Shown here: in pieces, positions 42,901 to 45,900 of the stretch
Numbering within the stretch: the stretch's first letter is position 1
Layout of the letters: every line of letters starts with the position of its first letter
Origin: Escherichia coli
GTDB lineage: Bacteria; Pseudomonadota; Gammaproteobacteria; Enterobacterales; Enterobacteriaceae
Reading direction: 5' to 3' (one strand)
Assembly (NCBI RefSeq): GCF_017348835.2
Contig: NZ_CP071375.1
Length of the DNA stretch: 64,000 nucleotides
Made by a program: the position numbers

Positions 42901-45900
42901 TTTAGGAAAAGCAAGGCGGGAAGTCGGGAGATAAGTCATTGATAAAGTGGCGGAGAGAGGGGGATTTGAACCCCCGGTAGAGTTGCCCCTACTCCGGTTT
43001 TCGAGACCGATGATACCGAATCGCAAAATCAAAAGGTTATAAATTTTTCTTGGAATAAATGTCTTAAAAACATACACGAAAAATCAATAAACTACGTTGA
43101 ATTCAATAAGAATATTCCAAGCCTTCTTTGAGTTATTTTTGACCAGTTTGCTGTTTTTCTTTCTCATAAAATATTTCCTGATATCCCTTAACATTACTGA
43201 TACTCAAGTAGTGAATTTATGAGCAATCCTAATCCATGCATGACGTGTGGTGCCTGTTGTGCATTTTTCGCGTCTCTTTTTACTGGGCTGAAGCAGATGA
43301 TGCTGGCGAAAGGTTTATCAGAAAACCGTAGCGCCTTCTTGCATACGACGTGTCCGCAGTTTTATATAATCCCGACCAGAAACCTCTTATAAAAAGTCGA
43401 TACACAAATATCATGGATAATCACCACCTTCTGACGAAGAATATCTGATGAAATTAATCGCCCCTCTCCTGAGACCATTGCGCTGGGGTAAATTTGTAAC
43501 TACGTGTGTACAGTGAGGTGTCGTATAGCACGCCGTCAGGAAATGCAAGGTGCCCCCGATATCCCCGACTACAAGTCAGCAAACAAAGTGATTGGCTGGC
43601 AATCCACATCACAGAAATGGACAATGCTACTTTATAATCGAGCTTGGTAGCCACCTTGATGGTCACTTTTAAAAAAAGCGTTTACACAAAATGATAAGCA
43701 GGCTCACAGGACCTCCCTCTAATCATCCACATTGTAAAGCTCCTTTGTTGTAAGTAAGATCCGGCACCCTAATAATATCAAAAGGATCAAAATCATCACT
43801 GCATCCTTCCACAAGACATTTCATTGCTCGTAGATCACCATATAGCTCTGAAGAGTGATGCGGACATAACAGACCATAAACTTTACATTTAGAATCTTCT
43901 TTACCTTGTCTACTTTCCTCAATTTTTACTTTCAATGAATACAGAAAAAAAAGCTCCCTGATATAACCATCCCTGTCATCTATCGTCATCCCCTCCCTCA
44001 GTGCTCCGACAACCTCATCAGTATTTTCATTTCTCACCTCAAATACACTATTTCTCTTATCCATCAGCCCACTTACAAAAGCACTTAGCTCTTGATAAAT
44101 TTCCTCAAGCTCATTACTATTTCTGGCATTTGAGTATATAGAGATCATAGCATCAAGTTTATCTTGTAATTCAGGAGTAAGAAAATGATTATGATTAAGT
44201 TCACTTACTGATTCCGGAGTCGAAGGGTTACCTCTTCCTGATACATACATCCATGAATAAAGATTTGCTGAAGAGCCACTTGTTGGTAACATATCAAAAC
44301 CCCCTTAACAAATAAATATTATAAAAAATATGGCTGTATAAAAATATTATACCTTACTTAATACCACACTAATAAGATCTTGCTTTCCTCCATGATAAGA
44401 TTCCATGATTTCATGTCTACTCCATGAAATATCAGAAACATTATAAGATGATATATCTATTGGATTAAATTCATTTCTCACACGATCATATAAAACATTT
44501 GTTTCTGTTGTATCAACAAAAAGAATTCCTTTTTTTCCAGTCTCTCAAACATATCATAAATAGCATGCTCAGCCTGTGCTGGCAAGGACGAAATATTTAA
44601 AAGCGATTCTCCATTTATTTTATCCATTCTAATACCAATAATATCTCTATTATCGCCATATATTTTCTCTGCACTCCCGGCACCATAATACTGGTTGAAA
44701 CAACGAACTTCGCTTGTCACCTCTTCATGGCTTTGAGATATAGTAAACATCTTCAACACTTTTGTTGTATTTTCCATATCTTCATACACGACAGCATTAC
44801 CACCTTTACCAATAACGTTACCTAGCACGGGTGATTTGTTGTTGCTAAGCCTCAGCAACGCTGACTGAGTATAATCCGCTGGCGGTAACTCCGGCTGCGC
44901 ATAATCCACTGGAGGTAAATCAGGTCTGTTCGAACGAACAGATCCTCTTTCTATAGTCGTGCTCACTGTCGATGAATTCAGCATAGCCTCAATTTTTCTG
45001 GTGATCTCTCCCTTAGGCCATCCCAGTCTATACAGCATATTAGTAAAACATCCACTATGACTCTCTCTTGTCACGCAAAACCTATTATCACTTAAAACAA
45101 CGCGATATGTTCTGTTGCTAACCTTTACTTGCGCCCCATTATCAGAGTGAGCGGCAGCATCCCTTACAGAGGGATAAAACACGATTATCAGGCAAAGTCA
45201 GGTTTCTGGTTAAAGAATTCCATGAACACCCCAAATTTACAGAAGATGGTGATAGCATACATTTCAACCTTCAAAATGAATCAATCTTTACTTTCTTAAC
45301 AAACATCACCATGACATGACAACAAAAAACTGGAAATTAACTATTGTTTTTGAGTATCTGGCAACTCATTCATCCTTCCAGCATCCCGTCAGACGAACGT
45401 TTACGAACTATAAATCAGGTATTACTGGCCCTCGAAATCTGGAGATACTGACGTATCAACACGGTTCAGTAACACCCGATACCTCTTCCAGACTGTCAAC
45501 AACGATGTCTCTTCATCCGTTGCGATCTGCAGCATCCTGAATATGAATGCCATAGCTTACGGCATCACGAAAAGTTTATGAGCGGCTCAAAGCATCAAGT
45601 ATAGTATTACTAATCATATCGACCGTATGCTGATCAATGAGTCTGCCACGACTGTCATGGACGGCGCGTATTACACTTTCGTATACGTTGCTTAAATCTG
45701 CTGCGGAAAGTGGTATTCGCTTACCTATATCCAAAACGTAATCCGCATAGGCATTTTCAGCACGATTAGGAGCAATGGGAGCAGAGTATCCTGCCGGGGC
45801 GGAAAAGTTGAAGTTGGACTGTAATGAGGGAATTTTCATGTTTATATCTAATACCCTGCAAATCATTTATTACAACAAAATAAACTATATCAAATTCATT

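Follow-up and report, generated by a model that had tools for sequence, protein, structure and literature searches.

A cysteine-cluster ORF at the serU end of an effector-carrying Escherichia coli prophage is very probably a ykgJ-like pseudogene remnant

Does the 57-codon ORF with a CxxCxxCC motif that lies between an att remnant and nleF specify a small metal-binding protein, or is it what is left of a longer gene? The initial annotation of this 64-kb stretch of DNA (the window) had raised both points, describing the motif as typical of small metal-binding proteins and the ORF as a possible truncated remnant from the arm of an integrated element. The ORF is present as described, on the + strand at 43219..43392, with an ATG start, 57 aa and a TAA stop at 43390-43392, and both features said to flank it are real. 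A defective lambdoid prophage of about 46 kb is integrated at tRNA-Ser serU, and the ORF is found some 200 bp into its right arm, adjoining an effector cluster (nleF, nleH', nleC', nleB2); the mtfA-side boundary of the prophage is formed by an intact serU and a frameshifted integrase. From sequence comparisons we conclude that the ORF is very probably a pseudogene remnant that has neither function nor mechanism of its own, and that its parent was a 109-aa gene of the YkgJ family (PF03692). The pseudogene status of this spot is already known from public annotation. The window is 100% identical to E. coli O145 RM9872, in which PGAP labels 43219-43307 as 'YkgJ family cysteine cluster protein; frameshifted; incomplete; missing C-terminus'; the same label is found in O103:H2 12009 and RM14723, and the spot is called a pseudogene by RefSeq in 6 of 6 annotations examined among the 109 genomes that share the remnant. 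One earlier database entry, EIH64205.1, gives the exact 57-aa sequence as a 'hypothetical protein'. The features of the region are as follows.

42947..43009, - strand: tRNA-Ser serU 3' remnant, 63 nt; host/prophage junction (att) on the yodB side
43010..43210, no strand: right-arm terminal spacer from att to the ykgJ-like start, collinear with intact-gene prophages (loci L009, L010 and L011) at 87-92% identity
43211..43308, + strand: 5' block of a YkgJ-family gene, -8 to +90 from the ATG; sole gene-derived part of the ORF
43219..43392, + strand: chimeric 57-codon ORF; by alignments and translation, codons 1-17 are native YkgJ N-terminus, 18-30 frameshifted ykgJ, 31-47 non-coding flank and 48-57 antisense to pin'
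43269..43270, + strand: site of a 1-bp deletion, TTTTTCCGCG to TTTTTCGCG; the frame shifts after codon 17
43306..43361, + strand: 3' flank of a pin-type gene, 79% identical to locus L004 2492-2545
43307..43316, no strand: truncation junction, ykgJ' / foreign DNA, inside a short CG(G)AAAG microhomology
43362..43505, - strand: Pin/Hin-type serine invertase C-terminal remnant, pin' (HTH part, ending ...LRQKVVIIHDICVSTFYKRFLVGII before the stop); the ORF tail is antisense to it
43528..43715, + strand: IS256-family transposase pseudogene-like remnant, 69-75% DNA similarity to a region of strain 2002-3211
43723..44292, - strand: nleF, first intact gene of an exchangeable effector locus (nleF, nleH', tfa', nleC', nleB2)

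The ORF and its intact relatives

The first ~98 nt of the ykgJ-like sequence match ykgJ in 5,026 of 5,426 complete E. coli genomes (megablast, E ~1e-30, 93% identity); thus, the cysteine motif of the ORF is not a product of chance. It reads C7-x2-C10-x2-C13-C14, and these four cysteines, which are in the native frame, are identical in intact family members, so that homologues with the conserved spacing do exist. C45 is the fifth cysteine of the ORF. By BLASTP the ORF and an intact prophage orthologue share 16/21 identities (E = 1e-10), and the next portion of the YkgJ protein is encoded in the neighbouring frame at 43236..43331. Scans of the ORF with Pfam, NCBIfam and PHROGs gave no match (none in Pfam even at E <= 10), and the repaired 31-aa N-terminus likewise had no Pfam match at E <= 10, the full 85-position PF03692 profile being unmatched. 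Assignment to the family consequently depends entirely on DNA homology and on the intact orthologues. In Rfam, too, the ORF had no match.

The longer intact homologue that the initial annotation suggested looking for in related prophages was found in 17 other E. coli genomes, where an orthologue occupies the same position in the serU prophage, 841 bp after yodB, and is intact at 109 aa; in one of these genomes, M3, the copy is shorter (104 aa) and visibly decaying. In STEC1585 and JNEC-KY171 the intact 109-aa orthologue lies 840-841 bp from yodB, and a serT prophage likewise carries an intact YkgJ-family copy. In this lambdoid prophage family the parent gene is the last of the right arm, about 200 bp from att at serU. 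The window is collinear with the intact-gene prophages from the tRNA remnant through the arm and into the first ~93 nt of the gene, at 87-92% identity, and the collinearity then breaks. The shared arm, the distance to yodB and the sequence identity establish descent from the YkgJ family. The intact orthologues match Pfam PF03692, 'CxxCxxCC, putative zinc- or iron-chelating domain', at E = 5e-12, with scores of 44.6-46.8 bits against a cut-off of 23. The motif therefore belongs to a genuine Cys-cluster family, for which metal binding is presumed by analogy; the label 'ferredoxin-like' is not established for YkgJ proteins, and a PDB sequence search with an intact orthologue returned no related solved structure. 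A dN/dS of 0.04-0.21, whether computed among the intact copies or against core ykgJ, marks the parent as a genuine gene.

The lack of a clear ribosome-binding site had also been remarked upon. The sequence upstream of the ATG, GTAGTGAATTTATG, is indeed without a strong Shine-Dalgarno, but that of the intact orthologues, GCGTAGTGAATGTATG, is nearly the same; a weak RBS is thus a family trait and not a mark of decay. A scan of 42900-43750 for sigma-70-like promoters gave no match, and a terminator scan found nothing at the ORF. Transcription through the ORF could persist, the upstream arm being conserved with that of the intact copies.

Truncation and frameshift

Codons ~31-109 of the parent gene are gone from the window copy. 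The 5' block (43211..43308) is 92.9% identical to core ykgJ (locus L003, 2001-2098), and the 90.6% identity to the prophage paralogue of ECA64 reaches 43315; overall, ykgJ-type homology ends at 43308-43316 and homology to the pin flank begins at 43307. E110019 and A25 share this junction but lack the frameshift, which leaves a 37-codon in-frame ORF whose tail differs from that of the 57-codon ORF. This truncated but unshifted allele, which carries further non-synonymous decay (C13Y in A25, for example), shows that the truncation came before the frameshift; the length of 57 codons is thus an accident of the later event. Alignment with these alleles and with the intact orthologues places the second lesion, a 1-bp deletion, at 43269..43270.

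Two events took place in the lineage of the window. First, illegitimate recombination or a deletion at about +90 to +97, across the CG(G)AAAG microhomology, placed the 3' flank of a pin-type invertase remnant directly after the first ~30 codons and produced the 37-codon stub that survives in E110019 and A25. As to the exact mechanism, which may have been deletion within one phage or exchange between two, the 5-8 bp of microhomology are the only guide. One C was then lost from the T5CC run at 43269/70, and the frame entered after codon 17 is by chance open for 57 codons in all, through non-coding DNA and antisense into pin'. The suggestion of a truncated remnant within an arm is therefore borne out for the 5' end of a ykgJ-like gene in the serU prophage, although not for the whole ORF: only codons 1-17 are in the native frame, ykgJ sequence continues out of frame through codons 18-30, and codons 31-57 come from unrelated DNA. 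By alignment, C47, C58, C71, C81 and C97 of the 109-aa proteins, five of the nine family cysteines, all lie past the truncation point. With four of nine conserved cysteines and less than one third of the domain, the stub would not be expected to fold or to coordinate a metal cluster in the way presumed for the parent. The ORF thus combines a frameshift and a truncation relative to intact orthologues under purifying selection, as a pseudogene does.

ARAGORN detected no complete tRNA at the serU remnant. The stretch 42940-43009 is 100% identical to tRNA-Ser in thousands of genomes; aligned with the intact serU that bounds the prophage at its opposite end, the remnant has 2 SNPs and lacks the 5' part. 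The first ~120 nt of the adjoining spacer occur in other serU prophages too. Beyond the junction, more than 1,800 genomes have pinE or recombinase genes that are 75-80% identical in DNA to the pin' remnant, which also gives a weak match to HTH_7 (E = 0.11). The IS256-like stretch had no Pfam match and owes its label to DNA similarity to a PGAP-annotated pseudogene only; in strain 2002-3211 that IS256 family transposase pseudogene flanks nleF in another nleF-containing effector locus. The intact-gene prophages have DUF4376 and tail-fibre genes as neighbours rather than effectors. The effector locus took the place of the 3' part of the ykgJ-like gene and of these accessory genes.

Other readings of the remnant

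The ykgJ-like piece might instead have been copied or transduced from core ykgJ at the chromosomal ecpE-ykgJ locus and not have decayed from a prophage orthologue. Over 98 nt it has 92.9% identity to core ykgJ and a slightly lower 90.6% to the ECA64 paralogue. However, the intact paralogues are themselves 96-97% identical to core ykgJ over codons 5-30 and about 90-93% over nt 1-96, which leaves percent identity uninformative as to the source. The flanks can: the arm and the position are collinear with prophages bearing the intact paralogue, homology to the core locus starts only at -8, exactly as it does for the intact paralogues, and the AAAGGTT that follows GGCG in the window is of the paralogue and not the core type. 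We rejected the core origin on this flank collinearity and regard it as extremely unlikely. Just as improbable is a small new protein made from the 57-codon ORF, with zinc or iron still bound at its N-terminal CxxCxxCC knuckle. In favour of such a protein, the start codon and upstream context are the native ones and match those of intact copies, the four clustered cysteines and C45 are present, and about 100 genomes have the sequence at 100% identity. Yet 40 of the 57 codons lie outside the native frame or outside any gene, conservation does not extend to the tail (the older allele stops at 37 codons with a different one), five of the nine family cysteines are missing and A25 has already lost C13. 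Nor is there a Pfam, NCBIfam or PHROG match or a promoter-like site, and the adjacent non-coding DNA is just as identical. The remnant is the same in more than 100 genomes because they have the whole decayed prophage end in common, not because of selection on the remnant.

Two further readings concern the block as DNA. In one, the ~98-bp ykgJ 5' block was kept for a role such as recombination linker or secondary attachment-type sequence that assists lambdoid prophages in swapping effector-bearing right arms, and the truncation arose by recombination there and not by random decay; in the other, the -8 to +90 block is a module homogenised between lambdoid prophages and the chromosome, a hotspot for exchanging effector-bearing right arms. 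The latter is suggested by three observations: paralogues that are saturated elsewhere are nearly identical within the block, the block recurs at several prophage ends, and its edge (about +93) coincides with the truncation point; if true, it would extend the att repertoire of 'prophages integrating into prophages'. Over codons 5-30, only 2-3 of 78 nt distinguish the intact prophage paralogues from core ykgJ; over codons 31-100, synonymous changes affect 59% of same-amino-acid codons. Orthologues from other genera have 25-55% changed codons within the block. This low synonymous divergence could also be explained by gene conversion with the chromosomal copy together with low-degeneracy codons (Cys, Met, Phe, Trp, Tyr). 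A ykgJ 5' remnant of ~307 bp (-193 to +114) recurs in 204 phage records, PPompW holds two partial copies, one ending at +91, and Stx1a phages have a 66-nt remnant; but the ends of such remnants vary (+39, +66, +91, +114), and the truncated junction of the window is found in one context only, at serU in 109 genomes. The DNA just past the junction is related to the ecpE-ykgJ intergenic region: 43306..43361 is homologous to about -85 to -33 of it, strongly so through the pin flank (L004 2450-2530 against core L003 1881-1962, alignment score 82, shuffle maximum 27) and weakly for the window segment alone (score 27, attained by 3 of 500 shuffles).

Both readings have a precedent in attB-in-PP_2, an attB for phages entering prophages that consists of ykgJ/ecpE-derived sequence at prophage ends beside effector loci (Nakamura et al. 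2021, PMC8112680). That 96-bp site is described as intergenic and, going by coordinates (the PPompW copy starts exactly at L003 1844), would occupy -164 to -69, with no overlap with the block. On these coordinates the block itself is probably not attB-in-PP_2, since the phage copy (-193 to +114) and the PPompW start at -164 would put the att in the intergenic part. Direct repeats flanking a second prophage, another feature of attB-in-PP_2, were not seen: the 64-kb window contains only one ykgJ-like piece, and the other prophage end reads int'-serU-mtfA with no second copy annotated. None of the 5,426 genomes has a prophage joined to chromosomal ykgJ through the block.

The integration of e14 at icd is a model for a phage that supplies a replacement 3' end. 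A phage entering chromosomal ykgJ in that manner is likewise not supported, a chimeric query (core upstream, block, paralogue 3' part and DUF4376 flank) finding no record with at least 80% coverage among the 5,426 genomes. On balance we judge a retained DNA role very unlikely and the homogenised module highly doubtful. Decay of a prophage YkgJ-family gene remains our preferred reading.

Marker value and comparison with known systems

The remnant should not be counted as a small metal-binding protein. Its modest value is that of a marker: an intact gene, a truncated stub and a stub both truncated and frameshifted occur at one position, and these three allele states give the relative order of the events that brought nleB2, nleC', nleH' and nleF to the serU prophage end. 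The same end is found in O145:H28, O103:H2, O157:H16, O111:H2 and O45:H2 and in many animal isolates. The locus is also one more case of a known pattern, ykgJ-region DNA at the ends of effector-carrying prophages.

The closest relatives are the prophage YkgJ proteins (WP_235155133.1 of STEC1585, WP_097746236.1 of JNEC-KY171 and WP_022581964.1 of ECA64). They share with the window copy the position at a serU or serT prophage end, the start codon, the upstream arm and nearly all of the first 17 residues, CxxCxxCC included; they are, however, intact at 109 aa, with nine cysteines, a PF03692 match and purifying selection, whereas the window copy is frameshifted at codon 18 and cut at about codon 30-32. 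Chromosomal YkgJ (b0288; UPF0153 / PF03692) shares its N-terminal motif with the window copy, and the first 98 nt are 93% identical, but it sits at another locus (ecpE-ykgJ-yagU), behind another upstream region, and is full length; the only processes in which TraDIS (PMC8743551) has implicated it are biofilm formation and filamentation. The attB-in-PP_2 loci of O145:H28 and other EPEC/STEC (PMC8112680) resemble the window in having ykgJ-region DNA at the extreme end of an effector-carrying lambda-like prophage, and the DNA after our junction is weakly related to the intergenic region from which attB-in-PP_2 derives. They differ in that the site there is intergenic (probably -164 to -69), whereas the window has the coding block from -8 to +90 and only about -85 to -33 of intergenic-like DNA, with no prophage inserted.

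For the parent family, Fe-S or zinc binding through CxxCxxCC is the likely chemistry, by analogy with FliB, one of two more distant Cys-motif relatives. Methyl transfer by the flagellin lysine methyltransferase FliB requires a [4Fe-4S] cluster, which is bound by CX4CX3CC, a motif that the FliB authors compare with PF03692 (PMC8598068). The other, phage DpdM (DUF3109), is a reported YkgJ homologue and is proposed as the leading candidate for the preQ1 methyltransferase (PMC10516641). FliB and DpdM, likened by description, share an N-terminal Cys-rich motif of the same type, but they are much larger or differently built enzymes and bear on the parent gene only, not on the remnant.

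The reading frame and its prophage setting

The cysteine cluster, att remnant and nleF described in the initial annotation are all borne out: the ORF is a 57-aa frame with an ATG start and cysteines at positions 7, 10, 13 and 14, and a tRNA-Ser fragment and nleF are located on either side of it. No complete tRNA was found near the ORF. The features at this end of the prophage are listed here; L014 is a stretch that covers the same prophage and reaches beyond the window.

42947-43009, minus strand: 3' fragment of a tRNA-Ser, 63 nt (sequence comparison)
43219-43392, plus strand: the ORF, ATG start, 57 aa (ORF listing)
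43723-44292, minus strand: nleF (ORF listing and RefSeq annotation)
44347-45258: nleH, frameshifted
45422-45532: tfa', tail-fibre-assembly fragment between the nleH and nleC remnants
45579-45866: nleC', only the N-terminal 96 codons kept
53008-53535 (L014 3897-4424), plus strand: sodC (superoxide dismutase family) of the prophage, located between J and the tail-assembly genes and oriented oppositely to them

E. coli O145 RM9872 (NZ_CP028379.1; window position = record position - 2,477,888) carries the window region on its chromosome at 100% identity. On the host side of the junction, hprRS, hiuH, msrPQ, zinT and yodB lead up to the tRNA-Ser remnant. The ORF is the outermost of the features in the right arm of a lambdoid prophage and is followed inwards by nleF, frameshifted nleH, the tail-fibre-assembly fragment, truncated nleC, nleB2, tail fibre genes, lom and J. 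This prophage measures ~46 kb, and its far end is a frameshifted integrase beside intact serU and mtfA. From the gene order and the prophage ends, the ORF therefore belongs to a defective serU prophage, lies ~200 bp from its int-distal end and marks the outer limit of an exchangeable effector locus. Nakamura et al. 2021 (PMC8112680) describe loci of this type in O145:H28 and other EPEC/STEC, where they occupy the ends of lambda-like prophages. The prophage is defective: besides the frameshifted integrase (L014 38865-40032, outside the window), it has a truncated replication ATPase, two IS3-family elements and other pseudogenes. The decay of nleH, tfa' and nleC' is common to O103:H2 12009 and the dog isolate RM14723; nleH is still intact in strain A25. 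Between the nleH and nleC remnants, Rfam also gives a match to IS009 that stays below threshold (RF02111; 45447-45657, minus strand; 62 bits, gathering score 117, E = 7e-13).

Homology to ykgJ and the intact parent gene

When 43040-43720 was searched by megablast in a set of 5,426 complete E. coli genomes, 5,026 matched, nearly all of them only over 43211-43308, which corresponds to the 5' part of ykgJ (-8 to +90 relative to its ATG; 93% identity, E ~1e-30); the complete stretch was found in 109 genomes. In alignments, the ORF shares its start codon with both core ykgJ and an intact prophage paralogue, has lost one C from TTTTTCCGCG at 43269/70 relative to both, and ceases to resemble ykgJ at ~43308-43315. 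Therefore, only codons 1-17 of the ORF are native and the sequence past about codon 30 is non-ykgJ; the native protein continuation was found in the adjacent frame. RefSeq/PGAP marks 43219-43307 as a YkgJ-family pseudogene in RM9872, frameshifted, incomplete and without its C-terminus, with an identical label in O103:H2 12009 and RM14723. The feature is a pseudogene, already annotated as such, that is left over from a YkgJ-family gene carried by a prophage.

A chimeric query made of the window arm, the 5' block and the remainder of an intact paralogue was covered in one piece by 17 genomes. In STEC1585 and JNEC-KY171, a 109-aa YkgJ-family gene begins 840-841 bp past yodB, the same distance as in the window; mouse strain M3 has a 104-aa copy at this spot with two cysteines already gone. 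This M3 copy (L011 5119-5433), annotated "intact", has Tyr in place of both C7 and C14, scrambled residues ~66-74 and a shortened C-terminus, and shows a second, independent decay route at the same position. At these loci, the gene is followed by DUF4376 and tail-fibre genes, which are encoded on the other strand. Collinearity between the window and these loci extends from the tRNA remnant via the arm into the gene (87-92% identity over 43000-43311/43315), beyond which the sequences part. The same terminal module occurs in the serT-integrated prophage of strain ECA64. The ykgJ 5' block, the frameshift, the end of homology and the intact copies at the same prophage position all support the initial reading of a truncated remnant from a prophage arm, and the longer intact homologue sought in related prophages is the 109-aa gene of the serU prophages.

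The intact proteins score 45-47 bits with Pfam PF03692 ("CxxCxxCC, putative zinc- or iron-chelating domain"), for which the cut-off is 23; the ORF itself has no Pfam match. Nine cysteines are conserved in the intact proteins, and dN/dS is 0.04-0.21 among the intact copies and against core ykgJ. Thus, the parent is a real, selected gene. Such paralogues are present at at least 90% identity in ~138 records.

Truncation, replacing DNA and ykgJ blocks of other prophages

Most genomes bearing the remnant (103 of 109) do so at ≥ 99% identity, a few at 94-97%. E110019 and A25 have the identical junction (…GATGCTGGCGAAAGGTTTATCAG…), yet retain TTTTTCCGCG; PGAP calls their copy "incomplete" without "frameshifted", and the ORF is 37 codons long. 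The truncation is therefore older than the frameshift, and the length of 57 codons is an accident of the new frame. Amino-acid changes in these two stubs, e.g. C13Y in A25, are consistent with relaxed constraint. As to the DNA that replaced the rest of the gene, 43307-43495 (minus strand) matches a pin-type recombinase pseudogene (L004) over its 3' end and 3' flank at 79% identity, and pinE of many strains at 75-76%. The minus-strand translation of this pin' remnant finishes …LRQKVVIIHDICVSTFYKRFLVGII*, the HTH end of an invertase (Pfam HTH_7 match weak, E = 0.11), and the ORF tail translates the pin flank, then runs antisense into pin'. Further on, 43528-43715 resembles (69-75%) an IS256-family transposase pseudogene; in strain 2002-3211 that pseudogene, too, adjoins nleF, within another effector locus that contains this gene. 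The junction falls within 43307-43316, inside a CG(G)AAAG microhomology, which suggests that illegitimate recombination may have created it.

Other prophages also carry 5' pieces of ykgJ:

L017 339-404: remnant in Stx1a phage LC744186
LC567841 40751-40913 and 43350-43524: two remnants
204 phage records: ~307-bp ykgJ-region block, -193 to +114

The Stx1a phages hold a 66-nt ykgJ' stub, and PPompW has two more partial copies, -164 to +39 and -73 to +91. These independent remnants sit where Stx and effector-carrying prophages end and stop at different positions (+39, +66, +91, +114); some lack a motif cysteine. Nakamura et al. 2021 link ykgJ/ecpE-derived DNA at prophage ends to attB-in-PP_2, a 96-bp site used by phages that insert into prophages. 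Since the PPompW copy beginning exactly at -164 fits the order 29 / 96 / 184 bp, attB-in-PP_2 probably occupies -164 to -69, where it would lie outside the window's block.

Could the block itself be a recombination module? Over codons 5-30, intact prophage paralogues differ from core ykgJ at just 2-3 of 78 nt, whereas synonymous changes affect 59% of same-amino-acid codons over codons 31-100 and are saturated outside the 5' block (L009 5120-5449, L010 5119-5448 and L002 3007-3336 compared with core ykgJ, L003 2008-2337). This contrast is absent from orthologues of other genera; in the chromosomal orthologues of E. albertii, Citrobacter and Klebsiella indica, 25-55% of 5' block codons are changed. 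In the phage copies, this block (43211-43308 in the window) therefore appears to be homogenised with the chromosomal gene of E. coli or to be under some other nucleotide-level constraint, and the comparison suggests either gene conversion with the chromosome or such a constraint. The truncation point coincides with the edge of the conserved block (~+93). In prophage remnants, the DNA that flanks pin-type invertase genes on the 3' side (43306-43361; L004 2450-2530) is homologous to the ecpE-ykgJ intergenic region (L003 1881-1962, about -127 to -46), in the neighbourhood of attB-in-PP_2. The idea of a phage that integrates in chromosomal ykgJ and supplies a replacement 3' end is not supported, as no such junction occurs in the 5,426 genomes. 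Taken together, the near-identity, the pin-flank homology and the phage-integration test keep the recombination-module reading alive at a low probability; the verdict on the ORF as a pseudogene remnant is unaffected.

Function of the remnant and its relatives

For the remnant, the best-supported prediction is that it has no function. It keeps less than one third of the domain and four of the nine cysteines, with its tail out of frame, and neither a promoter-like site nor an RNA family was found at the ORF. The motif region ending (Y/H)WAE is conserved in protein even among Verrucomicrobia (a Verrucomicrobiales MAG and Haloferula luteola; L022, L025), whose sequences share 72-83% nucleotide identity with E. 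coli over codons 5-30. For core ykgJ, the only phenotypes are from TraDIS, biofilm formation and filamentation (PMC8743551). Among relatives, the CX4CX3CC motif of FliB, related to the YkgJ type, binds the [4Fe-4S] cluster that its methyl transfer needs (PMC8598068), and the phage DUF3109 protein DpdM is described as a YkgJ homologue and proposed as the leading candidate for the preQ1 methyltransferase (PMC10516641). It is therefore plausible that the YkgJ-family parent binds a metal or an Fe-S cluster.
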